The position numbers and the translations under genes were made by a program. A stretch of DNA of 64,000 nucleotides from an uncultured delta proteobacterium. Its GTDB lineage: Bacteria > Desulfobacterota > Desulfomonilia > UBA1062. Where the stretch lies: contig CAWAUM010000011.1 of NCBI GenBank assembly GCA_963785235.1, positions 233,724-297,723 on the forward strand, given 5' to 3'. Below are positions 6,071 through 61,813 of the stretch, one piece after another (positions within the stretch are counted from its first letter, which is position 1; each line of letters opens with the position of its first letter). The notes under the pieces are model-generated. The model was not told where the DNA came from and made no database searches. It worked only from the letters and a program-made list of their open reading frames with translations.

Positions 6071-6122
6071 GCATCTCAAGGATTCTTTTGTTGTGAAATG
6101 TTCTGATGAGGGTAAAAAGCCC

Positions 6123-43870: not shown

Positions 43871-44281
43871 TCAGTTCCCGCCCCCAAGCTTGAAGCCTTT
43901 CATGCTGACCGTGATACCTGATGAAGTGCTTGTAACAATTGCCTTTTCAAGAAAGAACATGTCTTGTGCATAGGTCGAGGCAACCTCGGAAAACAGTTTT
44001 TTTACATCGTGGTCCGTCAGGGTGATTTCATAGTCCACGTTGATACCCCGTTCATGGGAAAGGGTGATCAGTTTGGCGCTGTATGCCTTGATGGACTCGA
44101 TCTTTTTTACATATTGTTTACGCTGCTCACTGGTCGCCAGGATCGCTCCCAGCTTGGCCTGGTTGAAGGTTATCTCCCTTGCTGCATGTACGTAATAGGC
44201 AAAGCCGGATATAACCAGCACGGCGCTGATGATGCCCATTATCAGGGCGAGGCGATAATACCTCATGGTTTTATCTCGCAA
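43871..44281 (-). CDS. GspM/PilO-like bitopic inner-membrane assembly protein
   Basis: 136 aa with a single TM helix after a short cytoplasmic N-terminus and a periplasmic alpha/beta domain. Its position between the GspL-like and GspC-like genes supports the call. Confidence 0.4.
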   Translation of the reverse strand: MRDKTMRYYRLALIMGIISAVLVISGFAYYVHAAREITFNQAKLGAILATSEQRKQYVKKIESIKAYSAKLITLSHERGINVDYEITLTDHDVKKLFSEVASTYAQDMFFLEKAIVTSTSSGITVSMKGFKLGGGN

Positions 44282-45699
44282 TTCAGGCTGAATTCAGCAA
44301 GCTGTTCCTTGTGGTTGTAAGCGGCCTTTGAGACGGGAAAGACCTCCTGCATGGTCATGATGAAAGATGAGAAGATCTCTTTGGATTTCGGGTAGGGAGA
44401 GTTGATGATGCCTTCTATTGCTATCCCGAATGAATTTGCATGAGATGTGCGATGAGCTTCTGCAGCGACAGGCATGGCCCTGCCCTTGGGAATGTCTTCC
44501 TGCAGGGAGGACCTGTTGACCTCGATCCTTGTAATGAAGACATTGGCCGGTACTCCCTGGGTTATGGTTTGTACAATTGATTGCAACTTGGGCTCAGCCT
44601 GGAAATCTTTATAGGTATCGACGATGGTGTTGATATTCGTCAGGTCAAGATTTTTGCTCAGGGATGTATAATCGTCTTCAAGCTCTTTGAGCTGCTTGGA
44701 GCTCTTATAAATTGCCGAATTGGTCCTCTTCTCCAAGGCCTCGGCCTTTGTGGTGTTGCTCCACCCCAATGCAAAAAACACAAAGGCCATCAGGATCATT
44801 ACCAATGATATGGCGCAAGAGATTTTTGCATATCCCACAATCCTTCTGGTCCGGTGCAGTTTTTCAGGGGTGAAGTCATAGCAGGGTTTCATGGCGGTTC
44901 CGAAGAGCACGATTGCAGCGGCGTCCGGATCTCCGGTTTCACTCAGGCTGAAAGGGACTGTATGGATGTTATGCTTTTCGAGATCGGATATATTGATCTC
45001 TCCTTGTCCTATATAGTAGATCTTCTGGACCTTTTCCTGGTTGGAGCTCTGCAGCATGGAGGTCATTTCCCGAATGCCGGAAACCGTATCGGCCTGGGCA
45101 TCGAAGGACTCGGCATAGTTAACGGTTATGAGGTAATAGATGATCCCGGATTTTGCGCCGATGATCCGGATGAAACGGGTGTCTTCATAGACGATGATCA
45201 CCATGTTTTTGTCAATGGAACCCACTGCCGAGGCGATGGATGACTCGATGGGGCAGAACATGTCCACAAGGGCCTCATCCTCGTCAATGAGATCGGTCCT
45301 GGTCAGTTCATTTGAAGGGATGGCCAGGTAGGAATACCTGCCCTTGAGGTTGTCTATATCCTGAATCTTGGCAAAGGCGACATGGTAAGTGTCCTTGAAG
45401 AGACCGAGTTTATCAATGGTAGATCGGATATGGGCTGTTGTGGCCTCCTTGCTGATACGGGAAAACTCACCCACATCCGAGTAGATGCCTCTGGATGAGA
45501 AGCATATGGACATGCCGGGCGCCTTGCGCGAGATGTCTGTCAATGAAGTGGAATCGACCTTCTTCATGTCTTTAAGGACGATCTTCTGTCCGGCGCCGGA
45601 ATAGGATGCAATGCAATGCTCCTCTTCGCCCAGGATAACGGCAATGCCCTTTTTCGGCCCCATTTTCATCGAGATAAATTTAGTCAATATGTCATTCAT
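44263..45699 (-). CDS. GspL-like / PilM-PilN fusion-like assembly protein (cytoplasmic actin-like domain, TM, periplasmic domain)
   Basis: 478 aa with one central TM helix (AISLVMILMAFVFFALGW), a cytoplasmic domain of about 290 aa before it and a periplasmic domain of about 160 aa after it. The architecture matches GspL. Confidence 0.45.
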   Translation of the reverse strand: MNDILTKFISMKMGPKKGIAVILGEEEHCIASYSGAGQKIVLKDMKKVDSTSLTDISRKAPGMSICFSSRGIYSDVGEFSRISKEATTAHIRSTIDKLGLFKDTYHVAFAKIQDIDNLKGRYSYLAIPSNELTRTDLIDEDEALVDMFCPIESSIASAVGSIDKNMVIIVYEDTRFIRIIGAKSGIIYYLITVNYAESFDAQADTVSGIREMTSMLQSSNQEKVQKIYYIGQGEINISDLEKHNIHTVPFSLSETGDPDAAAIVLFGTAMKPCYDFTPEKLHRTRRIVGYAKISCAISLVMILMAFVFFALGWSNTTKAEALEKRTNSAIYKSSKQLKELEDDYTSLSKNLDLTNINTIVDTYKDFQAEPKLQSIVQTITQGVPANVFITRIEVNRSSLQEDIPKGRAMPVAAEAHRTSHANSFGIAIEGIINSPYPKSKEIFSSFIMTMQEVFPVSKAAYNHKEQLAEFSLNCEIKP

Positions 45700-45773
45700 A
45701 TTTGTGAGTGTAGAGGATAAACCTCTCCACTTACTATGTTCTCGGAATTACGATTTGGTTTCTTTAGGATATT

Positions 45774-46412
45774 TTAAGGGAGTAATCCATGGAGATACGT
45801 GAGGCTCACAGTCTCGAGGATATCATCATAATTTGAGTTTATTAATGCAGAAGGAGAGGCGAATTGGTTATTATCACTGTTCGTGATACGCCCATCTCCG
45901 GTGTCGTCATTGGGAGTGTCTGCCCGCAGGTTTTCTCCCCCGGAAAGAACGACAAAGGCCACCTTCATGTTTCCATTGTCACAGAAGAGATCCGGAGCTG
46001 TTGTTCCATTGATAAGCTGACCGATTGTTGTTTTAAGCGTGGCGGGCGTAGTTGAGGTCAGATGTGATTCAACGGAATAAAAGAGGGTGGTCTGATAAGG
46101 GTCCTTGCCATTGATGCCGAGCGTTACCCAGGGCAGATAGCCATTTAGTCTGTTAGTAGTTTCAGCCCCATTGATGTTAGCGCTGGCAAACGGCAACCTT
46201 CCTGTGGCCAGGGCATACCCGATGATGGCGGTCCTGACTTCTTTGACAAACATCCGGTCATCCTTCAACTTGTTCTGCTTGATCAGCATGGGGAGGAGTT
46301 GTGCGCCAAGTCCCACAAGGATGCCGACTATCACGAGCACAAAGGCCATCTCGATGAGGGTAAACCCCTTTCGTGAAAAAGGCTTGCTCAGGCAGCAGCC
46401 TCTCCTTGTCAT
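45774..46412 (-). CDS. Prepilin-type N-terminal cleavage/methylation domain protein (pseudopilin)
   Basis: The class-III signal is SRKG|FTLIEMAFVLVIVGILVGLG, with E at +5. The likely start is MTRRG at 46412. The track ORF starts further upstream. Confidence 0.7.
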   Translation of the reverse strand: MTRRGCCLSKPFSRKGFTLIEMAFVLVIVGILVGLGAQLLPMLIKQNKLKDDRMFVKEVRTAIIGYALATGRLPFASANINGAETTNRLNGYLPWVTLGINGKDPYQTTLFYSVESHLTSTTPATLKTTIGQLINGTTAPDLFCDNGNMKVAFVVLSGGENLRADTPNDDTGDGRITNSDNNQFASPSALINSNYDDILETVSLTYLHGLLP

Positions 46413-46428
46413 AAGGTCATTGTTCACC

Positions 46429-47643
46429 CTAGCCACCCCCAAGCTTGGACATGAGGTCGTAAACCGGACCGATAAGGGAAATGACGATGAAGACGAAGAT
46501 GCCGCCCGTTATGACTATGGCAATGGGCTCAATCATCTTGCCCAAGATGTCTACAAAACGCGATGTCTTCAATTCGTAGGTATCTGCAAGATATTTCAGC
46601 CTCTGATCCAGGGTACCGGTCTTCTCGCCCACGCTGACCATCTTCAACGTGATGGCATCAAAGAATTTCGTTACAGTGAAGGCCGTCAGCAACGAATTGC
46701 CCATGTTGGTTTCATTACGTATACGTATGATGACCGAGCGGATGAGGTCGTTGTGAAAGACCTTTTCAAGGATATCAAGCGCTTTTGTAAGTGTCACGCC
46801 GGACTGAAGCATGAGGGACATATTCGAGAATACCAGGGTAAGGGTTGAGCATTTCAGCAGATCGCCCACCACGGGAAGACTGAAGGCAACACGGCTCAGC
46901 ATCAATCGTGTTCTAGGAATTTTTCCCAGAATGACAAACCCTATGGTAATCAATCCGAGTGCAATGGGGTATAGCAACCAGTTATCTTTGGAGAATTGGA
47001 CGAAATTGACAAGGCTCAACGTGATATTGGGGAGCTGGACATTGATCTCCTTGAAGGTTGAAACAAGGCGGGGCAGCACGAAAAAGAGCCAGAAGATGAT
47101 GACGCACAGCATGGCAGCCACCACGAAGCCCGGATAGATCAGCGCCCTCTTCACCTGGGAAACAATACTGTCCACCTTTTTTAAATAATTCGCGGTATTG
47201 TCCAGGGCTGTTTGAATGGTACCGGTCTCTTCTCCGATATGGCAGAAAAATATGAGCATCTCGGGAAACACCTCGGGCCGGCGTGAAAATGCCCCTGATA
47301 AAGACTCTCCCTGGGCAATGCCCCCGATGACCTCATCGATTGCATCTCGCAGGCGTTTTACCCTGATGGTTTCCTTGATGCTTTCCATGGATTCCAGTAG
47401 GGGCAGGCCGCTGCCGAGCATGGAGGCAAGGGATTCACAGAATTCCGCTATCTCGATCTTCTTAACTGCCGGCTGGGTAAGGGTCTTGATGGTTTCAATT
47501 ATCTGATACCTCTGTTCGCTGTAACGGATAAGCGTCATTTCCTGAGAGGAAAGGTTCTCCATCAGATCCCGGATGCCCTCGAAATCGCCCTTGGAGGCAA
47601 AGATTGTTCCGTCTTTCTTCAGGGCATTGTACGAAAGGATCAT
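46429..47643 (-). CDS. gspF: T2SS/T4P inner-membrane platform protein (GspF/PilC family)
   Basis: 404 aa with a duplicated T2SSF domain and three TM segments. Confidence 0.85.
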   Translation of the reverse strand: MILSYNALKKDGTIFASKGDFEGIRDLMENLSSQEMTLIRYSEQRYQIIETIKTLTQPAVKKIEIAEFCESLASMLGSGLPLLESMESIKETIRVKRLRDAIDEVIGGIAQGESLSGAFSRRPEVFPEMLIFFCHIGEETGTIQTALDNTANYLKKVDSIVSQVKRALIYPGFVVAAMLCVIIFWLFFVLPRLVSTFKEINVQLPNITLSLVNFVQFSKDNWLLYPIALGLITIGFVILGKIPRTRLMLSRVAFSLPVVGDLLKCSTLTLVFSNMSLMLQSGVTLTKALDILEKVFHNDLIRSVIIRIRNETNMGNSLLTAFTVTKFFDAITLKMVSVGEKTGTLDQRLKYLADTYELKTSRFVDILGKMIEPIAIVITGGIFVFIVISLIGPVYDLMSKLGGG

Positions 47644-49277
47644 TACCGCAAAACCCTCCAGATCTCTGCGAAGCTTGTCGTACCGTTAAGTATCTTGCGG
47701 ATGCCGTCACCCCGGAGCGTTACCATGCCTTCTTCCACAGCCTTGTCTTTGATCTCGAAGGGGTGTGACCCCACAGAGATGAGGCGCTCGATCTCTTTGG
47801 ATATAACCAGGATTTCCGCCACCATGATCCGGCCCAGGTAGCCGGTCTTTATGCACCTGGGGCATCCTACCGGGGCATACAGGGTTGTCCCTTTCTGGAT
47901 GCCGAATACACGGTGCTCTTCGTCGCCTGAATCATATGGCTGCTTGCAGCTCGGACAGAGTGCCCGGACGAGCCGCTGCGCTATGACGCAGATGAGTGAT
48001 GATGATATCATATAGTCCCTCATGCCAAGGTCTTTGAGCCTGGGTACGGCTCCGGAGGCATCGTTGGCATGCACCGTGGAAAGGACAAGGTGCCCTGTCT
48101 GCGCAGCGCGGAGCGCCATGGTCGCCGTATCGCCGTCCCGTATCTCACCGATAAGGATGACATCAGGGTCCTGCCGTAAAAAGGCCCTGACCGCGCTTGA
48201 GAAGATATACCCGGACTTCTCGTTAACCTGGGTCTGGCGGATCAGCGGGAACTGGTACTCAATGGGGTCTTCAACGGTCACGATATTTTTTTCAATGGAG
48301 CTGATCTCCCGCAAGGCCGCATATAAGGTTGTAGTTTTTCCTGACCCTGTGGGGCCGGAGACTAAGACCATGCCGTAGGGCTTGTGCAGAAGATCCCTGA
48401 GCTGGGTAATATCATCAGGATCCAGGCCAAGGCTCCGGATGTTATACAACTCCTCCGAGGAAGCCAGGATGCGCATGACCATGTTTTCCCCATTGGTAAC
48501 CTTTAAGGTAGAGACACGGATGTCATAGTGCTCATTTAAAAAATCAAAGGAGAGCCTTCCATCCTGGGGTTTGCGCTGTTCCGAGATGTCCATCTCGGCC
48601 TTTACCTTGATGCTGGAGATAACCCTGGAGTGCACCTCGATGGGAAAGGAGTAAAACGGGTAGAGTATGCCGTCGATGCGGTAGTGGATCTGTGTTGTCT
48701 TGTTCGTGGGGGTTACGTGGATGTCCGTTGCACGGGAGTTGATGGCGGACATGATCAGCAGCCTCACCAGTTTTTCTGTATCCACGTCGTGCGGATTATA
48801 CTTGGAATGTTCGAGCTGCTGCTCGATCTCTTCTTCTATGGGGTGTTCCAGGAGGTAATAGTCTTTTTCAATGTGCTTCTGTATCTGCGATGGCGATGCA
48901 GCCACAAACCGGATGCGTTTTTTCGAGATGCGTGAGGCAAGGTCTGACAGTTTCGTATTATCCGGTTCGCTCGTGGCTATGGTCAAGGTAGTGTCCTCGA
49001 CACTTATGGGAAGCAGGGAGTTCTCGCGTGCAAATTGCACGGGTAAAGCAGAGAGCGCTTCTTTCTGTGGTGAGAAATGACGCAGCTCTACAAACTCGAT
49101 GCTGAACTGTTTTGCAATGGACTGGGCAAGTTCCGTCTGGGTGACAAGGCCAAGACGGATCAGGATATCGCCGACCCGTTCCTTGGTGGCACGCTGTTCT
49201 ATAAGGGCAAGGCCGATTTCCTTATCGCTGATGATCCCTTCATCTTTGAGAAGATCACCAATGCGTTTTTTCTCCAT
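47643..49277 (-). CDS. gspE: T2SS/T4P assembly ATPase (GspE/MshE family) with N-terminal tandem MshEN-type c-di-GMP-binding motifs
   Basis: Walker A is GPTGSGKTT. Asp box, Walker B and His box are present. The tetracysteine is CPSC...CPRC. The N-terminus has RIGDLLKDEGIISDKEIGLALIEQ and RVGDILIRLGLVTQTELAQSIAKQ, each matching RLGxxLxxxGxIxxxxLxxALxxQ. Confidence 0.9.
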   Translation of the reverse strand: MEKKRIGDLLKDEGIISDKEIGLALIEQRATKERVGDILIRLGLVTQTELAQSIAKQFSIEFVELRHFSPQKEALSALPVQFARENSLLPISVEDTTLTIATSEPDNTKLSDLASRISKKRIRFVAASPSQIQKHIEKDYYLLEHPIEEEIEQQLEHSKYNPHDVDTEKLVRLLIMSAINSRATDIHVTPTNKTTQIHYRIDGILYPFYSFPIEVHSRVISSIKVKAEMDISEQRKPQDGRLSFDFLNEHYDIRVSTLKVTNGENMVMRILASSEELYNIRSLGLDPDDITQLRDLLHKPYGMVLVSGPTGSGKTTTLYAALREISSIEKNIVTVEDPIEYQFPLIRQTQVNEKSGYIFSSAVRAFLRQDPDVILIGEIRDGDTATMALRAAQTGHLVLSTVHANDASGAVPRLKDLGMRDYMISSSLICVIAQRLVRALCPSCKQPYDSGDEEHRVFGIQKGTTLYAPVGCPRCIKTGYLGRIMVAEILVISKEIERLISVGSHPFEIKDKAVEEGMVTLRGDGIRKILNGTTSFAEIWRVLR

Positions 49278-49466
49278 AAGACCCGTTCCCGCTCCTTAAG
49301 CAGTGCAAATTGAGAAATCACTCAAAGATATGTCCCTGCAAGAATCTCCTGTTGGAGAGTAGCCTTTCGGGTTTGTCTTCCACCTTCCTATCACGAGTGG
49401 GTGCATGATGTGTCATGCCCCAAACAACGCACGTGTGGGCCGGAAGACACCATCCTCGTGATACGG

Positions 49467-50060
49467 CTACATTCTCCAGTAGACAGTCTTAACCGTTGTT
49501 GCCGTATAAACAGTGTTGGCCCTCATGGTCCCTGTGTTGTAAACCGCGTCATCATATTTTCTGTCCATTTCCTGGGCAACCTCATAGGGGATCTGGGTGT
49601 ACACGATACAGTTCGCGTTCAGCGGTGTTGCAGACCCTGGGGGAGTAGCCAAATACTGGATGTAGGCCTGGCCTCCAAAGGGGTTTGTAGGGTAATCGTT
49701 AGCCGCTCCGGTATAGCCCCCGTTGATGATCTGTGCCAAGACGAGGTCCTGGAAGAGAACAGAGCGCTCGGTATTCGCATTGATCTGGCCGTTTCCTGCA
49801 GTCGCAGCAGGATCTGTATGGCCCTGTGTCGGGATATTAGCTACAGGTGCATCACCCGGATAATAGTTATACCTGTCATAATAGGTATAGAAGGCCGCGG
49901 TGAGTGAATCCTTCTGGTTGACTAACTTCTTGACCTTTGCATTCTGAATGAGGGCCTCGCCCTTGAGTACGCCTGTAATGAGCAAGCCGATGATCACCAA
50001 CACCAGTGCAAGTTCAACAAGGGTAAAGCCGCCTTTTTGTCGATTTCTAAACCGTTCCAT
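49467..50060 (-). CDS. Major (pseudo)pilin, GspG-like type IV pilin
   Basis: The prepilin leader is MERFRNRQKG|FTLVELALVLVIIGLL. The GspG-like region is NQKDSLTAAFYTYYDRYNYYPGD. Confidence 0.75.
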   Translation of the reverse strand: MERFRNRQKGGFTLVELALVLVIIGLLITGVLKGEALIQNAKVKKLVNQKDSLTAAFYTYYDRYNYYPGDAPVANIPTQGHTDPAATAGNGQINANTERSVLFQDLVLAQIINGGYTGAANDYPTNPFGGQAYIQYLATPPGSATPLNANCIVYTQIPYEVAQEMDRKYDDAVYNTGTMRANTVYTATTVKTVYWRM

Positions 50061-50180
50061 GCATACACCTCCTGATAGAGTAGCGCCTAGCTGTAAGCTC
50101 TAGTAAGCACCCAATCGGTATAATCCACATTCTTCTTTAGTAATTGCTCGATATGGCTTGAATTATGGAAAGGGAAGAGC

Positions 50181-52331
50181 TTATTCTTTATGCGTAATGA
50201 TTCGTCTCCCAAGTGTCAGGGGGGATATGCCCGGTATAGTGGAGATGTCCTTGTTATATACAGCTCCTGTTGAAGATATGAATTTCATGACACCATTGTC
50301 CAGATCAATGGAAGGACCAAAAGCGCTGCCCATAAACATGGCCTCTGACTTTGTTTGCCTTCCAGTGAGGGAATCATACTCTTGAAACATGGATATGCCG
50401 GTGTCAATACCTCCGCAGGGAGAATCTTCTTTCCAGGTGCTTAAGAATAACCTGTTATCCATGATTGTCATGCCTGAGGGTGAGCCTCCTTCAAGGGAGA
50501 CAGACCAAACGATATTCTCTTTGGTATAGCATTCAAGGCGTTTATTACTTGCCACGATGAGGTGAAGCTCCTTTCGCCAATGGAACGGACGTATCTCCAT
50601 AATGGGATTATTGGCGGTGGTGTTTATGATGCCCAAGAGTTCGAGCCTGTTGTTAAAAAGATAGACAAGTCCGTCGGATGTCCCTGCAAAAACCCCAGCT
50701 GTGCACGGATCATAGCGCACGACATTAATGGTATGATTAACTTCGAATTGAGCCGTCCCTATGCCGTTTCCAAGATTGTACGCATATATCGTGGAGCCGT
50801 TACTGATATAGGCCATGGATTCGGATGCGTCGATAAAAGACCCTTTATGCTGCCAGATTATCTGAGGTCCCTGGCCTATACACGAAATGATGCCCAGTCT
50901 GTTCGGGCCTGTTATGACCCGTTCGCCTCTCAGTCGCACCTCGCCCCCTATACCTGTCATGAGCCACGTCAGGCTGCCTTCGGGCATGGTGACATTGAGG
51001 AGCTGATCGCGGGATGTAGTGCAGTACAGGTCTGTCTGTGTGGCTGCAAGGTCATGGGCAAGGCCATTCAGGGAATAACCCGGGCAGGATACCAGGCTTA
51101 AAGGACTGACGACACTCGGTCTGTAAAACCGGCATTTGTCGGTTTTGAGCCATGGCGGATCGAGCCGTGCACGGAGGTTTTTCAGTATCATGTCCTGGTC
51201 GTTACGAACCACTATAGGCTGGGTAACCAGCATCTGTTCAGGAACGAGTATCTCCCGTGCCGGCATATACTGACCCCCGCCCTTTATAGCAACACTTCTC
51301 AGATACGCCGTATCAGGGCCGATAATGTGGACATTGATGCCCAGAGACTTCGCATAGGATGAGACATCATCAAGGCAGTGAGAGCCTTCCCCTTCAAAGG
51401 CAGCATCTTTGGCGTTTCCATCATGATCAAAGTCCTTCAGCCAGGAGGGGAGATGGCCGTCGTTTATGGGAACACCTGCAGTAACCAGAATGATATGTTT
51501 GCCGGATACACACTGCGAAGGGAACAGGGTTGTTGCATTATAAAGTGCCTCCGATAAAGGGGCTGAGCCCGATGCCGGATGAACGCCGTCAAGGCCCTGA
51601 AGGATCTGCTGCCATTCAATGGTAAAAGTTTGGATCAGGCCTTGTGACGTGCTCATAAGGGACACTTCACACAGATCCAGTGATTCAAAGAGCGACTTTG
51701 CGTAGGAGAAGGACTTTGTCCACACTGACATTGCACCTGTCAGGCTGCCGAGTGCCGGGGCCCTTTGATATGAGTTGCCCCAGCTTCCCTTGAAATAGGT
51801 GCCCTCAGCGTTCGTGTAGGTGTCTTCAAACTCACAGATATCACTGATGTGGGTTATGCCGCCTGTGGCCCATTTTGAGTAGAGCGCATCGTCTAAGAAA
51901 TCTTGGCCGGATGATGTAATCGTGCTTAATGAATCATCGATGATAATTATGATATGTGGTCTCTGGGCAATCCGGGTGGTGCCTTGTGGGATATCCGCAC
52001 TCTGTTCCCTTAGTGCCACACACCAGGAATATGACTGCATGGCGCTGGTTGCATGTTCGGTGAGCCTGGTGGAAAAACATATATGGTCCCACCCTTCAGG
52101 CGCCACAAGCAGTTTATGGGTTGCGGATGGCATAGTCCCGTTTTGGGGAGCAAAGAGCTGATCTTTAATAATACGATAGAAGGCGTTGCTCGATTTCATA
52201 TGGTACAAGGTTATGGAAGCGGACGCCATGGTAAGCCCCAGGATCACGGTAAGGAGTAGGAGTACAAAGGCAAGGATAAAACCTTGCTCATTGGATGGGG
52301 GATGATAAAGAGAGTTCCTTCTCTGTTCCAT
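50181..52331 (-). CDS. Large modular pilin-like protein with vWA (MIDAS DxSxS) domain and C-terminal beta-rich domain (PilY1-like / tip adhesin candidate)
   Basis: 716 aa. The pilin-like N-terminus is NEQG|FILAFVLLLLTVILG. HIIIIIDDSLSTITSSG is a vWA MIDAS motif, and a conserved Thr motif (HIILVTAGVP) is downstream. Its start overlaps the upstream minor pilin gene. Confidence 0.55.
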   Translation of the reverse strand: MEQRRNSLYHPPSNEQGFILAFVLLLLTVILGLTMASASITLYHMKSSNAFYRIIKDQLFAPQNGTMPSATHKLLVAPEGWDHICFSTRLTEHATSAMQSYSWCVALREQSADIPQGTTRIAQRPHIIIIIDDSLSTITSSGQDFLDDALYSKWATGGITHISDICEFEDTYTNAEGTYFKGSWGNSYQRAPALGSLTGAMSVWTKSFSYAKSLFESLDLCEVSLMSTSQGLIQTFTIEWQQILQGLDGVHPASGSAPLSEALYNATTLFPSQCVSGKHIILVTAGVPINDGHLPSWLKDFDHDGNAKDAAFEGEGSHCLDDVSSYAKSLGINVHIIGPDTAYLRSVAIKGGGQYMPAREILVPEQMLVTQPIVVRNDQDMILKNLRARLDPPWLKTDKCRFYRPSVVSPLSLVSCPGYSLNGLAHDLAATQTDLYCTTSRDQLLNVTMPEGSLTWLMTGIGGEVRLRGERVITGPNRLGIISCIGQGPQIIWQHKGSFIDASESMAYISNGSTIYAYNLGNGIGTAQFEVNHTINVVRYDPCTAGVFAGTSDGLVYLFNNRLELLGIINTTANNPIMEIRPFHWRKELHLIVASNKRLECYTKENIVWSVSLEGGSPSGMTIMDNRLFLSTWKEDSPCGGIDTGISMFQEYDSLTGRQTKSEAMFMGSAFGPSIDLDNGVMKFISSTGAVYNKDISTIPGISPLTLGRRIITHKE

Positions 52332-52980
52332 GGTATCTTGACCTCATGCGAATTGTCAGATCATTGCCTGAAATCGTTGGATGAAAGAGGACTACTGCCT
52401 CTGCAAGCAGTTGGTTGTTCCGGTAGAGGCCGTCTCCCTTCAGTTCATAGTGGATAGCCGGGACCGCCCTGTTGCCTTGTACAGGCATTATGGCGCATGT
52501 CAGAGGGAGGGTTTTTTTATCCAGGCCCCGTGAATAGTTGTGGCCTACAACACAGGGGCCGTTCTCGGTTATTATTCCAAGGTCGGCCCAGAAGTCTGCG
52601 CGGCCGTCATTGTCGATATCTACGGTATCGAGTATTGCAACCCTTTCAGCTGAGGAATTGATGAGTGCATAGTAAGGTGCCGGATTGGTCAAGGATATGC
52701 TGATACCGGGATTTTCAGATGTGACAGGCACCCCTGCAATAAAAAGCTGGCTGCCTTCAATCGCAATCTTAAGGTCCTGCGGGAGCAATAATGCACACTG
52801 AACGAGATCTGCATTCAGCTGGATAGAGGCCTGGCGGAGCGACTGCATGCAATACCATGCCTCTCTCATTTCTTTATGCGTAACAGCCGAAACCTGGTAG
52901 AATTGATAGAGAGCGAGAAAAAGTATTGATGAGCATGCAAGCGCTATAAGCAACTCCACCATGCCCACACCTCTTTCCAT
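52288..52980 (-). CDS. Minor pseudopilin (prepilin-type N-terminal domain, GspJ/PilW-like)
   Basis: 230 aa. The N-terminus MERGVGMVELLIALACSSILFLAL has G at -1 and E at +5. It is the first gene of the operon. Confidence 0.5.
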   Translation of the reverse strand: MERGVGMVELLIALACSSILFLALYQFYQVSAVTHKEMREAWYCMQSLRQASIQLNADLVQCALLLPQDLKIAIEGSQLFIAGVPVTSENPGISISLTNPAPYYALINSSAERVAILDTVDIDNDGRADFWADLGIITENGPCVVGHNYSRGLDKKTLPLTCAIMPVQGNRAVPAIHYELKGDGLYRNNQLLAEAVVLFHPTISGNDLTIRMRSRYHGTEKELSLSSPIQ

Positions 52981-53200: not shown

Positions 53201-54855
53201 ATGGAGCGCATGCAGAGCAGGGGAAATATACTTATCGCGGTTATTGTGGTGATCGCCATTGCCATGACCCTGTTCCTGATTGTACCCCTTGGCGGTAAGG
53301 TGGGGCAGCTCAGGGAAGCCACCATCTCGTTCATCTTCCGGAAGCCCCCGCAGTTCACCTCCATGGAGGTCGATGTGGAGGGGGCCCGCAAGGTGGTAAG
53401 AGCGGGTGAGTCACTCAAGATCAAGGGTGGTGAGACCATCATCATCACCAAGGTCCATGCAAATACGTTCTTCGATTCATACCTGTCTGCTGATGTTGTA
53501 GGCTTCAGTAAACCAAACGACATGAATGAACCCATCGATACGGTGGAGATCCGCAATCAGCTCATAGCCGCCGGCATCAAATCGGTCCCCATTGATATTT
53601 TCTACCTCGACCGGAAGATCGCCAAGGTCCCCCTTGAGTTGGATCTGAATGAGCAGGACTTTATCAATCAGATAAGATCAGCCAAGAGTGATGAGGAAAA
53701 GATCTCCCTTTTGCGCTCCGCACATGCAACATTTCCGAAGAATATGTCCTTTCTGGATGAGCTTGATAAGCTCTTGAGTGCTAAAGAAGATTACCAGGCA
53801 CTGGTGGGGATCTATAAGGGGGTTGTGGAAGCCGATCCTGCGAATTTGGCGGCATACTTGAATCTCTCAGCATATTACATAAAGCTGAAGAACTACGATG
53901 AGGCCCTTGCCATGTGCCGGAAAATTATCGATGCGGGCAAGGCGGATGCGGTCATTTACCGCCGCATGGCCTATATCGCAGGCGAAAAGGGTGATCTTGA
54001 AAACCGTGTTGTATACCTGAAAAAGGCCCTTGAACTTGATAAACAAAACGAAGCCGTGGTTGTCGACCTGGCCAAGACCTATGAACAGGCAGGCATGAAA
54101 CAGCAGGCCCTTGATGTGTACCAGTCTGCTTCGGATATTGCCAAGGACAGGGATATCCTTATCCCTCTGATTCAAAATGCGATGAAAAAAGAAGATTATA
54201 AAAAGGCGCTCGATCTTCTGAAGCGCTACATTCAGCGCTACCCCAATGATAAGAATGCCACTTGCTCAGCTTGCCATGGTCATGGGCAAGCTGGGTGATA
54301 CAAAGGCGCAGGTTATATATTACCAGAAGGCGGCTGAACTTTCGCCTTCAGACAGCGTGATCTGGTATAACCTCGGTGTTGCCCGCGAAAAACTCGGCGA
54401 TAACAAGGGCGCCCTTGACGCCTATGACAAAGGTGCTCCAGATGAAGCAGGCAGATATGGATTCCATGCAGGCTGCGGCAGGCCTGTCTTTGAAACTGGG
54501 CCAGTACAAGGATGCATACGCGTATTATTCATCCCTGGCGAAAAAGACATCCAAGAAGGAACACCTTAAGGGACTTGTGAGCGCCGCTGTCGGATTGAAG
54601 GACCAGGACAAGGTTATCGAGGCCGGTACCTTGTTCCTCAAGAACAACAAGGACCATGACGTGGCCATGGCACTCGGGTATGCCTATGAGTCCAGGGCTT
54701 CTACACGTGAGCCCCGGGCAAAGCTGGATGACCTGAATAAGGCCTTGGAGGCATATCAGACAGCCCGTAAGGTCAATCCCGCATCCAGGATTGCAGGCGA
54801 GAAGATACCCGAGCTTAAGATTGAGATCCTTAAGCTCAGGAAGGCAAGGCAGTAA
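53201..54855 (+). CDS. TPR-repeat membrane-anchored protein (two apparent frameshifts near 54250-54300 and 54400-54480)
   Basis: It has an N-terminal TM helix followed by many TPR repeats spread across ORFs 53201-54298, 54246-54569 and 54376-54855. It is transcribed divergently from the pilus/secretion operon. Confidence 0.5.
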
Positions 54856-54896
54856 GGCCGCGTGTGTATATGAGCCCTGGGAGTCAAACACACGTC

Positions 54897-55553
54897 ATGG
54901 ATAGGACGTTTGCCATCGGAGACATCCATGGATGTCTCGATAAACTCGAAGACCTCATAAAGCTCATCGATCCTGGCCCGAAGGACAGCCTGATTTTTCT
55001 GGGTGATTACGTCGACCGGGGCGAATCCGCCTCAGAGGTGATCGATTACCTTATAGATCTTGCGCGCAGGGTGCCCTGTGTTTTTTTGCGGGGCAACCAT
55101 GAGGATATGTTTATCACCTTCTTGGAGTTCGGCTCGAATAAGACGATCTTTTTTGCCAATGGCGGCCTTAAGACCATCGAGTCCTACATCAAGCCCGAAC
55201 GTTTTACCGGCAATGACCAGGTGGCCCGAAGGTTGCCCGAGGCACATAGAGATTTTCTCTCAAATCTCAAGCTGTATCATGAGGATGACGGGTATATTTA
55301 TGTGCATGCAGGCATCAAGCCCGGCAATCCCATGATAGAGCAGGACAGGTATGACCTTCTCTGGATCAGGGACGAGTTCATCTTTTCGCCCACCGGCATG
55401 GAGAAGAAGGTGATCTTCGGGCATACACCCTTTGCCAGGCCCATGGTGAAACCGGATAAGATCGGGATAGATACCGGGGCGGTCTATGGCGGGGTTCTCA
55501 CGGCCATAGAGATCCCGGGCGAAACATTCATCCAGTCCTTCAGGCAGGCATAG
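54897..55553 (+). CDS. Ser/Thr protein phosphatase family metallophosphoesterase (PrpA/ApaH-like)
   Basis: The motifs are AIGDIHGCLDKL, LGDYVDRG and GNHE. The likely start is MDRTF. Confidence 0.7.
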   Translation: MDRTFAIGDIHGCLDKLEDLIKLIDPGPKDSLIFLGDYVDRGESASEVIDYLIDLARRVPCVFLRGNHEDMFITFLEFGSNKTIFFANGGLKTIESYIKPERFTGNDQVARRLPEAHRDFLSNLKLYHEDDGYIYVHAGIKPGNPMIEQDRYDLLWIRDEFIFSPTGMEKKVIFGHTPFARPMVKPDKIGIDTGAVYGGVLTAIEIPGETFIQSFRQA

Positions 55554-55577
55554 GCCTTATAAACGAGAATAACAGCC

Positions 55578-56237
55578 ATGTCCAAGGATTATTACCGGAT
55601 TCTGGAAATATCCAAGGATGCAACGTCTTTAGAGATCAAGAAGACCTACCGCAGGCTCGCCCTTCAATATCACCCTGATCGTAACCCCGATAGACCCGGC
55701 CTATAGAGCATTTCAAGGAGATCACCGAGGCATACGGGGTGCTTATCGACCCGGACAAGCGGCGGAAATATGACATGCAGCGTGAGATTCTCCTTCAACC
55801 GGGAGACGGTGTTCGAAGATATCTTATCCAAATCAGAGTTCCGGGACGTCTTCGATGATCTGCCCATACGAAAAGAATGGATTGACCGCATATTGAACGT
55901 GAGCAAGGTCTTTGCCTATGAGGCCTTTGTGGTGGGAGGCACGCCCAGTGCAATCCTGAGGCGGTCCATGGTGCGCCTGGCATCGCAGGGATTGAACAGG
56001 ATGTTCCATGCAGTCATGGACATGCACGAAAAGGTTGCCATCCCTTCAAGCATTGCCGTGCTCGGGGGATACATAACCCTGGAGTACAGGCCGGGCTTTG
56101 TGAAACACAAGATCCGTGTGAAAATACCCAGGAACACGCAGCAAGGCACAATGCTCAGGGTCCTGGGGATGGGCAGGTCAAGCCCGTCAAGAAAGGCAGG
56201 GGACCTCTATTTGCAGGTGGACATCGAATCGTTGTAA
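55578..56237 (+). CDS. J-domain protein (CbpA/DnaJ-like), two apparent frameshifts
   Basis: The J domain is [34 protein letters not shown], then [23 protein letters not shown] in another frame. The C-terminal DnaJ_C-like [22 protein letters not shown]...GDLYLQVDI is in ORF 55770-56237. Confidence 0.65.
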
Positions 56238-57151
56238 ATGACGATCTGGTTCTTGCCGTGCGTCTTGCCCCAGTACATGGCCGCATCCGCCATTTTGATG
56301 ACCTCGTGCGGATCGCTGGAATCCTTCGGCAGGCTGGAAAGGCCTATGGTGACGCTGACCTCAAGCGTTGATTCAACCGTGCTGCAGATACGCTCTGACA
56401 CCACCACGGCCTCTTCAATGGAGGTTTCGGGGAAGAGGATAATGAACTCCTCGCCGCCATAACGGGCAAGGATGTCGCAGTTTCTCGTGTTATGCTTGAA
56501 CACATGGGACAGGCGCACGAGCATTTCGTTGCCCTATTCATGCCCTTTGGCGTCGTTGTACTTCTTGAAATCGTCGATATCGATCATGGCCAGAGACATT
56601 GTCCTGTTGTACCGCAGGTGTCTCGAAACCTCGTTCTTGAGTACGCTCATGAGGTGCCGGAAATTGTACATGCCCGTGAGTTCGTCGGTGCGGGAGAGGT
56701 TCCGGTAGTAGTCAGCCAGTTCGGCCTCCTCTTTGAGCCTGACCTCTTCGAGGATCCTTTGGATGGTGAGGTGGAGGTGGTCGAGCAGAATCGGTTTGGT
56801 AATAAAATCCGAGGCGCCGAGCTTCATGCATTCCACTGCATCACGAATGGTGCCGTACCCGGTAATCATGACAGCCTGGATATCGGACCTGATCTTTTTG
56901 ATGGATTTCAATAACTCCGAACCTGTCATGCCCGGCAGGTGAAGATCCACAATGGCTATATGAAAGAGGTCTTTCTGGACGAATGCAATTGCCTGCTCCC
57001 CACTCATGGCGGTTGTTACATCAAAATCGTGCCCTAAAAGATACTCTTCAATAAGATCAAGGGTCTCCTGTTCATCATCCACAATCAGGACCCGAGTTGT
57101 TTTCTTCACAAGCGTGGCACCCATCGTATCAGCCGTTCTCCTTGTCCTCAC
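56207..57151 (-). CDS. Response regulator with GGDEF output (diguanylate cyclase, PleD-like); one apparent frameshift near 56525
   Basis: REC is VLIVDDEQE...AIVDLHLPGMTG. The GGDEF domain has RYGGEEF in ORF 56207-56524. Confidence 0.8.
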
Positions 57152-57348
57152 ATAATAATTCCATGAAGAGAACTTACAACTATCTTCATACTAACGGATA
57201 ATTGTCTACAATTCATGAGAGTTATTTTCGTTTACCGTCAGGGGGTGCTAGTATTAGCGAAATAATTTCAAGTAGGTGTCTCATGAGCTTTTATGTATAA
57301 CAGAATTCCCTCTAAAGATATTTTAAAAAAAGTCCGTTAAAGGGTGGG

Positions 57349-58156
57349 ATGCAACAGGCTTGTCTTATCAAGAAGATTGAACAGCATATTGAGAGTATTC
57401 CGACGCTTGAGTCCAGCCGGATGAGGCTCTTTAATGTGCTCCAGGAGGAAGAATCCTCCATAGAGGGTATTGAGCAGGTAATATCCAGTGATCCTGCCCT
57501 TGTAGCCAAAGTGATCAAGCTGGCGAATTCGTCGTTCTACCGTCATGCCGACAGGCATGTGGGAATCCAGCAGGCATTACGCACCATCGGTCTTGACATG
57601 GTGAAATGCATCGCATTGTCCATGGCCGTGATGGAGACCTTCGGCACCCAGACCCCTTCAATGAAGCAGCTCTGGAGGCATTCCTATGCAGTGGCTTATA
57701 TATCAGGACTGCTCGGGAATTCCAAAGCCGAGAAGGAGTGTCTCTTCACCGGGGGGCTTCTCCATGATATCGGCAGGATGATACTGATCTGCAGAGACAC
57801 CTGAACACTATCTTCCCCTTTGCGAATTCACCGGTAGCTGGCCCGATCTGGCATTAGAGCGCGATGTTTTCTCCATGGACCACACAATAATCGGCGAAAT
57901 GATCGCGAAGCGCTGGCATTTTCCGCCGGAAGTCATAGCGCTGATAAGGTATCATCATGAACCAATGAGCCGAGCAACCGCCCTTGTTTATCTGACGGAT
58001 CAGGTCGTCATGCAGCATGAGAGGGGTTTGATCACAGAAGATTTTGAGCAGGAGGTCGGAATCAGAAACCATCTTGGTGATGAGTATAAAGATCTTGTAA
58101 ATACTATTAGACAAAGGTATAGAACGAACACGGTTATATTTGAAAATTTGGGGTAA
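57349..58156 (+). CDS. HDOD domain protein (apparent frameshift near 57800-57880)
   Basis: The HDOD signature is ALVAKVIKLANSSFY...ALRTIGLDMVKCIALSMAV...GGLLHDIGRMIL. The continuation is in ORF 57875-58156. Confidence 0.7.
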
Positions 58157-58164
58157 GGGGCATT

Positions 58165-60292
58165 GTGTTTGCCGTGAAGGAGCTGCATATTCTACGGGGC
58201 GAATCCACAGAGCTTACCTCGACTCGTGAAGCGATCCTGCTTGATCTCCTCAGCAAGGCCTCTGATTTCTATGAACAAACGGTAGGGGTACTTTCTTCCA
58301 TCTTCGAGATCACCGAATTCGTCTCTAAAGGCTCTCCGGAGAGCGATTTTTTCGCTTATGTAACAGGCGTGCTCATCGAGGAGTCAAGGTGTGAAAACGC
58401 CTCAATCTTCATGGTGGAGAACGGCATGGTAGTACTCAAGGCCGCTTCCGGTATAACAATAAACAATGCCAATCCTCATGTGAGCATGGCACTCGGAGAG
58501 GGTGTTGCCGGAACCTGTGCACAAGATGGAAAGACCATCTTAGTTCATGATGTACAAGACTGTGAATTTTTCAAAAAGATGGATTCCGCCAAGGTAACCA
58601 TTGGTTCCATGCTGTGCGTGCCCATTAAGGAAGGAAACCGGACGCTCGGCGTCATGAACCTGTCCCACTCATGCAAGGGCTTATTTCAATGTCCATTATG
58701 TCCGGGTGTTTGAGCTCATGGGCCTGCTCATCGGCCAGATGCTTACCCTGGTGCAGCTCTATGAAGTCTTCCATCGGAAAAATTCAGATTTGACTGAACT
58801 CTTAAGCGAAAGAGACGAATCTTTACGAAGCGTTACCGAGAGGTATAAGGCGGTTGTCGATATTTCCGAGGAGATGATATTCATTATCGACATGGCAGGC
58901 CGTGTCCTGTTTCTCAACAGGGCCCTGCAGTTACTCCTGACAAGGCCGCCAGTGACCATTTCGGATATCTTCGATGAGAGGTGCGTTTCCTTGATCCTTG
59001 AAACCGTTTCTCAGGCAGATACCGGACATTCCACCGAGTTTGATCTCAATGTGAAGGTGGGAGATAAGGCCGATGTCATCGCTCAGTTCTTTGTCAAGCA
59101 TATCGATACCGACCAGATTCTCGTAATTATGCGTGACATCACTGCCAAGAAGCGCATGGAGCAGAAGACCATGCAGACAGAGAAGCTCACCTCGCTCGGG
59201 CTTCTTACCTCCGGGATAGCCCATGAGCTCAACAACAAGCTCACGCCTATCCTGGGATTTGCCGACCTCATGGACCCGGATCATCTGACCCCTCAGGACA
59301 AAAAGAGGCTTTCCATCATCATCAACTCGGCCTCGGCCGCCAAGGGCATTGTGGAATCCCTGCTCAAGTTTTCCCGGAACAAACCCCCGGAGAAGAACAT
59401 CTTCGACATGCGTGATGTTATCAAGAGGACTATGAACCTCTATAGCCCCATCATCAAGAAGCGCGGTATAGAAATCATCAACGAGGATCCTGAAGAGCCG
59501 CTGTACATTAAGGCAGACATGAATTGCATGGAGCAGGTGCTCGTGAACTTCATCAACAATTCCATCGATGCCATTGATGAGCACCCCGGCACCATCTGGA
59601 TCAGGTCGTTCATCAATGATGAATTTGTAAATGTCACTATTGAGGATACTGGTCCAGGCATTGCTGAAGGCGTCAAGACAAAGATATTTGATCCGTTTTT
59701 CACCACCAAGCCGAAGGACAAGGGAACAGGACTCGGGCTTTCCATATGCTACGGGATCATTTCCGACCACAAGGGCGAGGTGTTCATTGAAAATACAAGC
59801 AATGGCGCCATGGCGACCATGAAGATCCCTGCCATCATGGATATGGACGCCAAAGACAGGGATGCTGTCATAGATGATGAGCCCGCCTGCACGCCCTCTG
59901 ACAGCCGGAAGAGGCAGAGCCTGATCATGGTGGTGGAGGACGAGGCGGATCTCCTTGACCTCATGGTGGACACCTTGAGCCCGCACTACAAGGTCATCAC
60001 CTTCGAGAACGGCAGGAAGGCCTGTGATAACATCGAAGAGTATGCCTGGGAACTCATCATATCCGACCTGAGGATGCCGGTGATGAACGGCATGGAATTC
60101 TACCACGAGGCGATAAAGAAGAACCCGGGTTTAAAAAAGAGGTTCTTGTTCATTACCGGTGATACCTATGACTTCCAGGTTAAGGAATTTCTTGAGACCA
60201 CCGGTGTAACATTCCTGAGGAAGCCTTTCAGGATCAAGGAGTTGAGGGAATCCGTGCACAAGCACCTGCAATTGAGGATGATTAAGGAATGA
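58165..60292 (+). CDS. Hybrid sensor histidine kinase, GAF-PAS-HisKA-HATPase-REC (apparent frameshift near 58700)
   Basis: GAF is in ORF 58165-58713. The H-box is IAHELNNKLTPIL, the G-box is GTGLGLSICYGII, and the C-terminal REC is LIMVVEDEADL...ISDLRMPVMNG. Confidence 0.8.
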
Positions 60293-60963
60293 GTATTAAG
60301 AGGATACTCGTTGTGGACGATGAAGAGATCGTCCGTTATTCACTGAAAAATATCCTTACAACCAATGGGTTTGAGGTGGATGAAGTAGGCTCTGCCGAGG
60401 AAGCGCTCAAACTCCTCTATACCAAGAGCTTTCATCTGGTGCTCACCGACCTTGTGCTGGAAGGCATGGGCGGGCTTGAGTTGCTGGAGAACATCAAGGT
60501 TATATCGCCCAGGACACTGGTGATCGTGATTACGGGCTATGGTTCCCTGAAGACCGCTGTGGCTGCCCTGAGGCTCGGGGTGTACGACTATCTCCTCAAG
60601 CCCTGTGACGAAAATGAACTCGTTTTGAGGGTGCGCAGGGCGCTTGAGATGCAGGGTTACGGCACGGAACAGAAAAAACTCCATGAATTAAGCGCCATTG
60701 CCAAGACCGCGGTGACACTCTCGGACAAGATCAATACCCCGCTCAACATCATCCTGGGCAACATCGAGATGCTCGAGCTCAGCCCGGAGCTTGAGAGGAA
60801 CACCAAGATACAAGAGACACTTCATGTCATGGAAACGCAGATATTCACCATCAAGAAGGTAATGGATAAGCTGGCCAGCCTCACGAACGCCGATACCAAA
60901 AGATACCCGGCTTTAAGGGATTATGAGATTATTGATTTGACAAGCGAGGGGGCCAATGATTAG
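60289..60963 (+). CDS. Response regulator receiver fused to a DHp-like (HisKA-like) helix lacking the phospho-His (SDKINTPL)
   Basis: REC is ILVVDDEEIV...LTDLVLEGMGG. The C-terminal helix LSDKINTPLNIILGNIEML aligns to an H-box with Asp in place of His. There is no ATPase domain. Confidence 0.65.
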   Translation: MSIKRILVVDDEEIVRYSLKNILTTNGFEVDEVGSAEEALKLLYTKSFHLVLTDLVLEGMGGLELLENIKVISPRTLVIVITGYGSLKTAVAALRLGVYDYLLKPCDENELVLRVRRALEMQGYGTEQKKLHELSAIAKTAVTLSDKINTPLNIILGNIEMLELSPELERNTKIQETLHVMETQIFTIKKVMDKLASLTNADTKRYPALRDYEIIDLTSEGAND

Positions 60964-61435
60964 TTCAAAGCAGATCCTGATCGTTGATGATTCCCATGAC
61001 CTGACCCATGTGATAGCGGATTTCCTGGGCATGTACGGATACCAGGTTCATACGGCGCACAATGGGTACGATGCCTTGGAATGTATGCACTCGCAGCATA
61101 TCCAGGTCGTGGTGAGCGACATCCATATGCCTCGCATGGATGGATTCACGCTGATGGGAGAGATCAAGGCAAAGTACCCCGAGGTGCCCATTGTCCTGAT
61201 TACGGGATTTTCCGTTAGCGAGGCCCAGAAAATGGCCTTTGACCATGGGGCTAATGCCTTTGTTGCAAAGCCCTTCAAACTCAAGGAGCTCAAGAGTGTG
61301 ATAGAATCGGTTTCACAAGAAGATATACACAACAGCATTGAGGAGGTAGATAATGAAGAAGACGACCAAGGTGAAGAAACCCCAGAAGGTTCTCTGCTAC
61401 ATCGATTATGCAAAGTACAGCGCCTTTATTGTTGA
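60956..61435 (+). CDS. Single-domain response regulator (CheY-like REC) with acidic tail
   Basis: ILIVDDSHD...VVSDIHMPRMDG...VAKPFKLKEL. Its 3' end overlaps the usp start by about 80 nt, so the true stop may be earlier. Confidence 0.7.
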   Translation: MISSKQILIVDDSHDLTHVIADFLGMYGYQVHTAHNGYDALECMHSQHIQVVVSDIHMPRMDGFTLMGEIKAKYPEVPIVLITGFSVSEAQKMAFDHGANAFVAKPFKLKELKSVIESVSQEDIHNSIEEVDNEEDDQGEETPEGSLLHRLCKVQRLYC

Positions 61436-61813
61436 TTATGCATACCAGCTCTCTTGCCTTATTGATGCAGAGCTCTTTGTCCTTCATACCGTCACCGACA
61501 TCAAGAATGCTGCGGGTTTTTATGTCCCCCACATCAATACCGACAAGCTTGAAGAGGAAGTAATAAGGCAGCCAAAGACAAGATGTATTCCATCTGCAGC
61601 CAGGTGGGTGATGATGTGATCGATGCGAAGCACAGGCTTGTCATGAGGGGAATTCCCATCGATGTGATCAATAAGGTGATCAAGGACAAGGCAATTGAGC
61701 TGCTCATTATCGGCCATGAGGTCAGCAAGGGTGCCCTTGCCGGGTTCAGGAGCGATTATGCGGAGAAGTTCATGAAGAACCCGTCGATTCCTTTCCTGGT
61801 CTTGCCGGTTTAA
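61353..61813 (+). CDS. Universal stress protein UspA family (apparent frameshift near 61590)
   Basis: The N-terminus KVLCYIDYAKYSAFIVDYAYQLS..LFVLHTV and the C-terminus LLIIGHEVSKGALAGFRSDYAEKFMKNPSIPFLVLPV are in two frames. Confidence 0.6.

Follow-up and report, generated by a model that had tools for sequence, protein, structure and literature searches.

Two-component signalling is a His-to-Asp phosphotransfer driven by an ATP-binding domain. What, then, can be the task of a transmitter-like protein that has neither the phospho-accepting His nor such a domain? The question is raised by a 64,000-nt stretch of contig CAWAUM010000011.1 (the window), in which six signalling genes are packed together at 56207-61813 (the island). 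One of them (60289-60963, forward strand) codes for a 224-amino acid (aa) protein, termed here REC-DHp, in which Pfam finds a receiver (REC) domain followed by a HisKA-like stretch. The original prediction, made from the sequence without database searches, had proposed that this protein keeps a recognisable H-box in which the phospho-accepting His is replaced by Asp, that it has no catalytic domain, and that it could be a phosphatase- or adaptor-type DHp protein. The anatomy proved to be correct, and the two types named are where our evidence points. REC-DHp is not a histidine kinase, having no His and no ATPase, and it is not a phosphotransferase of the Spo0B/ChpT type. We file it, with its relatives, as a new form within "HisKA, no HATPase", a class not yet characterised; in its working it would most resemble a HisKA transmitter that is fixed in the phosphatase state.

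Can the sequence be trusted? A nonsense codon or indels are present in five of the six island genes, and on this ground the Asp, or the absence of a catalytic domain, might be ascribed to sequencing errors in the window. This explanation can be considered refuted. Indels were called against L001 and L002, the two nearest loci (92-96% DNA identity), and the REC-DHp gene, the sole untouched one of the six, shows none relative to either. Among 120 homologues (74-97% identity, 216-239 aa) the Asp, at position 146, is invariant, as is the H-box TLSD[KR]INTPLNIIL around it; the residue that follows is Gly in 120 of the 121 sequences and Ala in one. The orthologues in our syntenic comparison set (19 loci from Desulfomonilia-like metagenome-assembled genomes (MAGs), 70-98% identity) measure 216-232 aa. 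The gene stops 78 residues past Asp146, overlapping the next gene, and leaves a tail of ~25 residues beyond the second DHp helix. No HATPase follows the DHp in the window protein, in the 19 syntenic loci or in the 20 family representatives scanned, and wherever a syntenic locus reaches that far, the gene located 3' of REC-DHp codes for a REC. The original prediction had allowed for a His restored by indel correction or for a HATPase domain further downstream: there is no indel to correct, the homologues carry Asp, and a REC gene follows.

The receiver of REC-DHp (60304-60633, forward strand; Pfam residues 6-115, E 6e-29) has a complete phospho-acceptor pocket, D10, D11, D54, T82 and K104, all five residues being invariant in the orthologue alignment. 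Its nearest solved structures are receivers of the NtrC1, NtrX and DctD type; the top Foldseek matches were the NtrC1 and NtrX receivers, with TM scores up to 0.95 on the target, and since receiver matches prevailed when the full model was used, the Foldseek search is uninformative on the DHp part. An AlphaFold model built as a monomer with distant relatives in the alignment reached a mean predicted local distance difference test (pLDDT) score of 82.8; an earlier model on a shallow orthologue alignment (pLDDT 51) was set aside. In the model, helix alpha5 of the receiver runs unbroken into a long helix (residues 108-164), which is followed by a turn and a second helix (172-196), with pLDDT values of 75-90 over this two-helix hairpin. 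The DHp-like part of it, for which a family profile matches the HK853 DHp and which is devoid of the phospho-acceptor His, comprises residues ~128-197 (60670-60879, forward strand). Asp146 (codon GAC, 60724-60726, forward strand) stands at the His position in both the RetS and the HK853 alignments described below. It is followed by Asn149-Thr150-Pro151 (60733-60741, forward strand), and the family alignment places Thr150 at H+4. No other conserved His was detected in the C-terminal half of the orthologue alignment. The protein ends in a tail with the conserved motif K-x-Y-x4-6-M-[IL]-D-[LI], in the window protein TKRYPALRDYEIIDL, modelled as a beta-hairpin (strands 203-206 and 212-215; 60895-60936, forward strand).

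In Pfam the kinship of this hairpin with HisKA transmitters is borderline. The HisKA-like stretch (residues 143-199, E 3.8e-5) lies below the Pfam cutoff: against PF00512 the window protein scores 24.1 bits and its L003 orthologue 22.8, the gathering cutoff being 26.9, and the place of the phospho-acceptor His is taken by Asp146. A precomputed PF00512 match exists for some orthologues, and relatives that do carry the His score 36-49 bits. A profile of 22 distant Asp-bearing relatives, in turn, matched HK853 (PDB 4jas, 2c2a and 3dge) with E-values of 9e-7 to 7e-5 and LvrB with 1.3e-6, and the alignments span both helices. In the alignment to HK853 the Asp corresponds to His260, the Thr to Thr264 and the Pro to Pro265. 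The same register was obtained with phmmer, which aligns TLSDKINTPLNIILGNIEML with KISHEIRTPMNGVLGMTELL of RetS and places Asp146 opposite the RetS His; among PDB entries the RetS DHp gave the domain its best single-sequence match, with a non-significant E of 1.2. The H-box is recognisable, as the original prediction had it. The alignment to HK853 continues past helix 2, where the family tail lies opposite LQINREKVDLCDL, a segment directly after the HK853 DHp that we take to be the opening of its catalytic domain. No PDB sequence match to Spo0B or ChpT was obtained for the domain. Because of the HK853 profile alignment, the hairpin of the model and the two DHp helices, the module is best described, at the level of sequence and predicted structure, as a HisKA transmitter truncated after the first beta-hairpin of the ATP-binding domain.

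How widespread is such a module? Residues 120-224 were searched as a single sequence against 1.84 billion representative proteins (E<=1e-3), and only 52 matches were obtained. The repeat proteins P0124 (11 repeats) and P0134 (8 repeats) among them were judged to be spurious low-complexity or coiled-coil matches. A profile search with alignment A2 in a 5.8-billion-protein index, whose words did not extend to the family, returned only 5 short matches, and the family size given here is that of the single-sequence search. The H-box could be read in 48 representatives, which fall into 31 Asp forms (VT.[SN]D[QKRH]IN[TS]PL) and 17 His forms (VT.NHEINNPL). Three positions change together. With Asp at position 0, position +1 is Gln, Lys, Arg or His (31/31) and position +4 is Thr or Ser (30/31); with His at position 0, position +1 is Glu and position +4 is Asn, each in 16 of 17 cases. 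Asn+3, Pro+5, Leu+6 and the tail are common to both forms, the tail motif being found in 24 of the 31 Asp forms and 15 of the 17 His forms. A HATPase is absent from both forms. Members occur in at least three phyla (Desulfobacterota, Calditrichota and Delongbacteria), and most are metagenome proteins. The module follows REC, PAS, GAF-PAS, GAFx3-PASx2, REC-PAS or SBP-PAS-PAS sensors, the place taken by HisKA-HATPase in real kinases, and this placement would imply a regulated output.

The pattern of conservation bears on the possibility that the module is a degenerate remnant, a dimerisation or coiled-coil output that merely pairs two receivers and in which the H-box has no specific role. The sub-threshold Pfam score of the HisKA stretch, the many REC-coiled-coil proteins that exist, and the lack of a known function across the "HisKA, no HATPase" class would all fit such a remnant. 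We nevertheless consider it improbable. Across 22 Asp forms that share only 17-30% identity, in at least three phyla, the sole invariant residues are the H-box Asp, Asn (+3), Pro (+5) and Leu (+6) together with the Met of the tail; the polar H-box residues Asp, Asn and Thr/Ser, beside Pro and Leu, are the most conserved, and the heptad core is less so. Selection therefore appears to act on the polar H-box surface, beyond the dimerisation core. Selection on a functional site is likewise indicated by the way in which Asp and His forms differ, cleanly and jointly, at three positions.

If the module is functional, what does it act on? We compared the gene contexts of the window and of seven other Asp-form loci. 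In seven of these eight contexts a REC is either fused behind the module or adjoins it, often with overlapping genes. The fused cases are P0130 and P0137, both REC-DHp-REC, and P0148 (PAS-PAS-DHp-REC); P0130 lies between two kinase genes at L034. Adjoining RECs are found at L036 (GAF/PAS-DHp followed by two REC genes), at L037 (REC-PAS-DHp, REC, kinase), at L039 (REC, then SBP-PAS-PAS-DHp) and at L040 (PAS-DHp, REC). The phospho-acceptor residues are intact in all these partner RECs. The partners also resemble each other. The free-standing REC of the window scored 94-104 bits against the RECs fused behind Asp- or His-form DHp modules, 97-100 bits against the adjacent RECs of L039 and L040, 78 bits against that of L037 and 72 bits against the first REC of L036, as opposed to 54-60 bits against the window's three remaining RECs. 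A second tight group (117-150 bits) is made up of the receivers at the N-terminus of REC-DHp proteins. The window pair of REC-DHp and free REC is thus, as far as sequence can tell, the split form of the REC-DHp(Asp)-REC proteins. This is gene-fusion evidence of the classical kind for the downstream REC as the target of the DHp(Asp) module.

At L041, an unrelated metagenome contig, an HDOD gene (5779-6660) lies directly 3' of the Asp-form gene, and its product is 32% identical to the L003 orthologue of the island's HDOD protein. HDOD proteins may be recurrently associated with this kinase-less transmitter family (n=2). In the Calditrichota locus L037 the Asp-form gene is preceded by a gene (5159-6004) for a REC-HATPase_c_2 protein, an RsbW-like anti-sigma kinase. 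Genes for flagellin, FliD and FliS come before it, a hint that the output in that genome is related to motility.

The order REC-DHp-REC, in one chain in P0130 and P0137 and as the split form in the window, mirrors a Spo0F-Spo0B-REC relay, and it could be argued that Asp146 is itself a phospho-acceptor. Phosphate would then pass along an all-aspartate relay, from the N-terminal REC to Asp of the DHp and on to the partner REC, with an acyl phosphate in place of the phosphohistidine. Acetyl phosphate and other small acyl phosphates can serve receivers as phosphate donors, and Lys, Arg or Gln at +1 could stabilise an acyl phosphate. An exchange of His and Asp within one orthologous group also fits. 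P0153 (L043:2544-3680) reads H-Q-V-N-S and is 51% identical, end to end, with the Asp-form P0130 (L034:1944-3086); both are REC-DHp-REC proteins and have the same neighbours, including a flanking REC-PAS-kinase gene. With a His among Asp-form neighbour residues, P0153 appears to be an intermediate between the two forms, and position 0 would tolerate H or D within one orthologous group, in this single case. Such an exchange is easier to square with a residue in a supporting role than with one that must accept phosphate, and it would also agree with phosphate acceptance by both residues. Against an aspartate relay, a phospho-Asp on a DHp helix is without precedent, no Mg2+-binding acidic pocket surrounds Asp146, and many members have PAS or GAF in place of the upstream REC, hence no donor in cis. 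We hold this relay to be very improbable.

Which known system does the module resemble most? HisKA transmitters in their phosphatase state (Thermotoga HK853-RR468, EnvZ and CrdS) share with it a DHp that is homologous by profile (HK853, E 1e-6), the same H-box register, Thr at H+4, Pro at H+5 and a receiver next door. Unlike them it has no ATP-binding domain beyond the first beta-hairpin, Asp for His, and Lys, Arg or Gln for the Glu at +1, and therefore it cannot be a kinase. The "HisKA, no HATPase" class shares the architecture: a REC, PAS or GAF sensor followed by a C-terminal HisKA-like domain and no HATPase is what we find here. Galperin et al. described archaeal proteins of this class with a conserved His, which P2CS labels "possible incomplete histidine kinase", and REC-(PAS/GAF)-HisKA regulators such as Archaeoglobus AF_1472; none had been studied, and phosphatase activity was called an intriguing possibility (PMC5847659). 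A 2026 preprint on HisKA-like profiles treats incomplete kinases as a census class only. Our family differs from those proteins in being bacterial and in its Asp, which is present in 31 of the 48 representatives (His in 17) as well as in the window protein, the comparison with the archaeal proteins being by description. For a characterised HisKA protein without catalytic domain we found census-level mentions only. A literature search for the His-to-Asp form, the covarying neighbours, the hairpin tail and the dedicated REC subfamily found none of them, which is weak evidence, most subscription journals being outside the search.

Other proteins offer partial parallels. Caulobacter DivL has also lost the phospho-acceptor, replaced there by Tyr, and acts through contact with the single-domain receiver DivK~P; unlike REC-DHp it keeps its catalytic domain, the substitution is Tyr and not Asp, and no sequence kinship was found beyond the HisKA fold. 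Spo0B and ChpT are kinase-inactive DHp-like proteins that stand between receivers, and REC-DHp-REC has the order Spo0F-Spo0B-Spo0A, but those proteins need a His and a full pseudo-catalytic alpha/beta domain, whereas REC-DHp lacks the His and ends in no more than a short hairpin tail. In RetS a DHp is known to serve for inhibition (of GacS) rather than as a phosphodonor; RetS differs in being large and membrane-bound, resembles a hybrid kinase and has a catalytic domain. Finally, CheX/CheC (ExxN), CheZ and the NarX-type HisKA_3 transmitters (DxxxQ), Spo0E and Rap which are auxiliary receiver phosphatases, all offer to the receiver active site, on a helix, an acid and an amide or hydroxyl one turn apart. 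The ExxN motif of CheX and the DxxxQ motif of CheZ and NarX belong to receiver phosphatases (summarised in PMC3510030). In our family the counterpart is D(0)-x-x-N(+3)-T among Asp forms and E(+1)-x-x-N(+4) among His forms. There is no homology to any of these phosphatases, and the acid-amide likeness, a motif-level analogy, backs a phosphatase reading by inference only.

Mutational work on HisKA kinases separates the two activities of a transmitter. In CrdS, HK853, HK1190 and HK4262 the Glu at H+1 is needed for kinase activity only (Willett & Kirby 2012, PMC3510030), and the Thr or Asn at H+4, which positions the attacking water, is needed for phosphatase activity only (PMC3510030). In CrdS the His itself is largely dispensable: CrdA~P has a half-life of 2.6 min with CrdS H371A, of 0.7 min with the wild-type enzyme and of 53.5 min without enzyme (PMC3510030). 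In the Asp forms what is kinase-specific (ATPase, His and +1 Glu) is gone, and what is phosphatase-specific (Thr or Ser at +4, with Pro at +5) is kept, along with a cognate receiver. Because kinase-only features are lost and these are retained, we favour a transmitter-type phosphatase, an activity already suggested for "HisKA, no HATPase" proteins by Galperin et al. 2018 (PMC5847659). Our preferred reading is that REC-DHp may, under the control of its own REC, dephosphorylate the partner REC or serve as a module that binds it, and we assign to it a probability of about 0.4.

Having no ATPase and no His, REC-DHp can neither autophosphorylate nor relay phosphate via His. Beyond this, from the anatomy, the invariant H-box, the covariation and the REC partnership we infer the following scheme of who phosphorylates whom, of docking, chemistry and output. 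The hybrid kinase next to it would phosphorylate REC-DHp on the N-terminal REC, and the phosphorylated REC would switch the DHp activity through the continuous alpha5-DHp helix. The DHp(Asp) would then dock a receiver as a kinase does in its phosphatase state and speed the hydrolysis of phospho-aspartate on the downstream single-domain REC. In this way the hybrid kinase would load the partner REC with phosphate and at the same time, by way of REC-DHp, arm its discharge, creating a delayed negative branch. Where a sensor-DHp(Asp) protein and its partner REC occur with no kinase nearby, the pair could possibly be a kinase-less two-component system, in which acetyl phosphate or a distant kinase charges the REC and the sensor controls discharge only.

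Several points weigh against a phosphatase that acts on the partner REC. In PleC the His is needed for phosphatase activity, as judged from H610A (PMC3510030). Next to a phospho-aspartate, an Asp would be unfavourable electrostatically without Mg2+ or Lys as a bridge, and position +4 is Ser in 9 Asp forms, a residue not documented as a phosphatase residue there. The tail is modelled at low confidence (pLDDT ~60) and the predictions are monomeric only. The contexts were sampled at 8 places only, and in one of these, L041, the GAF-PAS-DHp(Asp) gene adjoins the HDOD gene and not a REC, on a contig that ends soon after. No kinase was found within ~5-6 kb at L036, L038 and L040, or within ~3.6-6 kb at L039.

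The anatomy and the REC partnership fit binding as well as catalysis, and a non-catalytic adaptor has to be weighed. DHp(Asp) could bind the partner REC, phosphorylated or not, and sequester it or signal its state in the manner of DivL, or block the DHp of the hybrid kinase in a mixed bundle in the manner of RetS, whose DHp, as said, is the best if non-significant PDB match. RetS inhibits GacS by DHp-DHp contacts (PMC8498467), and the kinase core of DivL is an input for a phosphorylated REC (PMC4211667). The Asp could mimic the charge of phospho-His and give a tight, unproductive docking, and real kinases flank members at L034, L037, L043 and in the window. An adaptor leaves unexplained the strict retention of Thr/Ser at +4 and Asn at +3 amid a drifting helix surface. 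Moreover, identity with the DHp of the adjoining kinase amounts to only ~24% along helix 1, and at four loci (L036, L038, L039 and L040) the examined flanks hold no kinase with which to heterodimerise. The adaptor agrees with the anatomy almost as well as the phosphatase does, and we consider it possible, if somewhat less probable.

The family drops the His and the ATPase yet keeps the receiver-docking helix, the water-positioning residue and a dedicated receiver partner. If its members are signal-gated phosphatases, they would provide a compact, kinase-independent control of receiver phosphorylation, and the "incomplete histidine kinases", a large and mis-annotated class, would gain a function. 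The members would at the same time be a natural kinase-dead, phosphatase-only transmitter with which the phosphatase half-reaction could be dissected or engineered. If instead the aspartate relay were true, an acyl phosphate would replace the phosphohistidine intermediate that defines two-component signalling. With so clean a covariation of His/Glu/Asn versus Asp/(Lys, Gln, Arg)/(Thr, Ser), the question lends itself to a direct test.

How is REC-DHp embedded in the island? Pfam recovered the six signalling genes and their domains as originally predicted, the PAS of the hybrid kinase at sub-threshold level only. All six are intact in L003, and the island genes are collinear across the 19 syntenic loci. 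On the reverse strand, divergent from the rest, lies the gene for a REC-GGDEF diguanylate cyclase (57151-56207; Pfam REC and GGDEF; intact orthologue L003:3803-4786, 327 aa), which has a GGEEF motif with an RxxD five residues upstream of it and, by these motifs, looks catalytically competent in relatives. The forward strand starts with an HDOD protein (57349-58156; Pfam; intact 269-aa orthologue L003:5060-5869, HDOD E 3e-48), followed by the hybrid histidine kinase GAF-(weak PAS)-HisKA-HATPase_c-REC (58165-60292; intact 708-aa orthologue L003:5878-8004). In the window, Pfam finds the kinase in two parts, GAF at 58165-58713 and HisKA, HATPase_c and REC at 58706-60292, with the H-box GIAHELNNKLTP. 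The PAS match reaches 20.4 bits with PAS_8 (cutoff 21.8), and in the L003 orthologue Pfam reports no PAS at E<=0.001. The kinase stop overlaps the start of REC-DHp, after which come the free-standing single-domain REC (60956-61435, forward strand; Pfam REC E 1.4e-28; L003 orthologue 132 aa) and the Usp protein (61353-61813, forward strand; Pfam; intact 152-aa orthologue L003:9063-9521, Usp E 9e-10).

In L003 the kinase, REC-DHp, REC and Usp genes overlap successively by 4-8 bases, and the HDOD gene ends 8 bases before the kinase start. Because of these overlaps and the short gap, the genes from HDOD to Usp bear the signature of one operon, to which the REC-GGDEF gene would be divergent. A scan for promoters and terminators gave no excess of sites over shuffled sequence, and the operon boundaries therefore rest on the gene overlaps. 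NCBIfam has no model that reaches its cutoff for any protein of the island system. Rfam gave no match over the whole window, and therefore no c-di-GMP riboswitch.

Two further proposals of the original prediction did not fare as well as the anatomy. A multi-step phosphorelay is unsupported, because it needs a His transfer step after the REC of the hybrid kinase and none is seen: the six island genes hold no HPt and no other His transfer element, and the DHp has no conserved His. For the REC of the kinase itself, the role of a sink or autoregulator is more likely. The supposed feed of this relay into the diguanylate cyclase, the HDOD protein and, as a possibility, the MshEN ATPase has no ground but proximity. 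The last of these, a T2SSE-family ATPase with an N-terminal MshEN domain (47643-49277, reverse strand), belongs to a pseudopilin/T2SSF/secretin operon (41823-52980) and lies 7 kb from the island, past TPR, metallophosphatase and DnaJ-like genes; any link to the REC-GGDEF cyclase is conjecture. The protein carries RVGDILIRLGLVTQTELAQSIAKQ, presumably the 24-residue c-di-GMP-binding motif of MshEN, with a looser copy before it at residue 5.

The damage to the window copy can be located gene by gene. The REC-GGDEF gene has an in-frame TAG at 56534-56536, where relatives carry Lys, Asn, Glu or Ser; stop-codon recoding was ruled out, since these are ordinary sense codons. Relative to L001 and L002, 1-bp insertions split the HDOD gene (~57796) and the GAF part from the rest of the kinase (~58680), a 2-bp deletion at ~61327 lengthens the open reading frame of the free REC, whose true end is probably near 61353, and a 1-bp deletion at ~61566 splits Usp. 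The upstream TPR and DnaJ-like genes are likewise fragmented (damaged stretch 53201-61813; indels near 55564-55783), and therefore the damage is assembly-wide rather than a peculiarity of the island. Its character, scattered indels of 1-2 bp in most genes of the stretch with a single nonsense codon, looks like an error-prone assembly, not gene decay. In L001 (~6687-6790), the closest relative, the contig is without the part of the kinase that matches residues 337-475 of the window reading frame 58706-60292, a deletion or a misassembly in that MAG.

The metallophosphatase (54864-55553), DnaJ-like (55553-56237) and TPR (53201-54855) genes lie upstream of the island, and this synteny is kept in most of the 19 loci that reach there. 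Elsewhere in the window, an ordinary H-box, VAHEVRNPL (16164-16226, forward strand), marks another histidine kinase.

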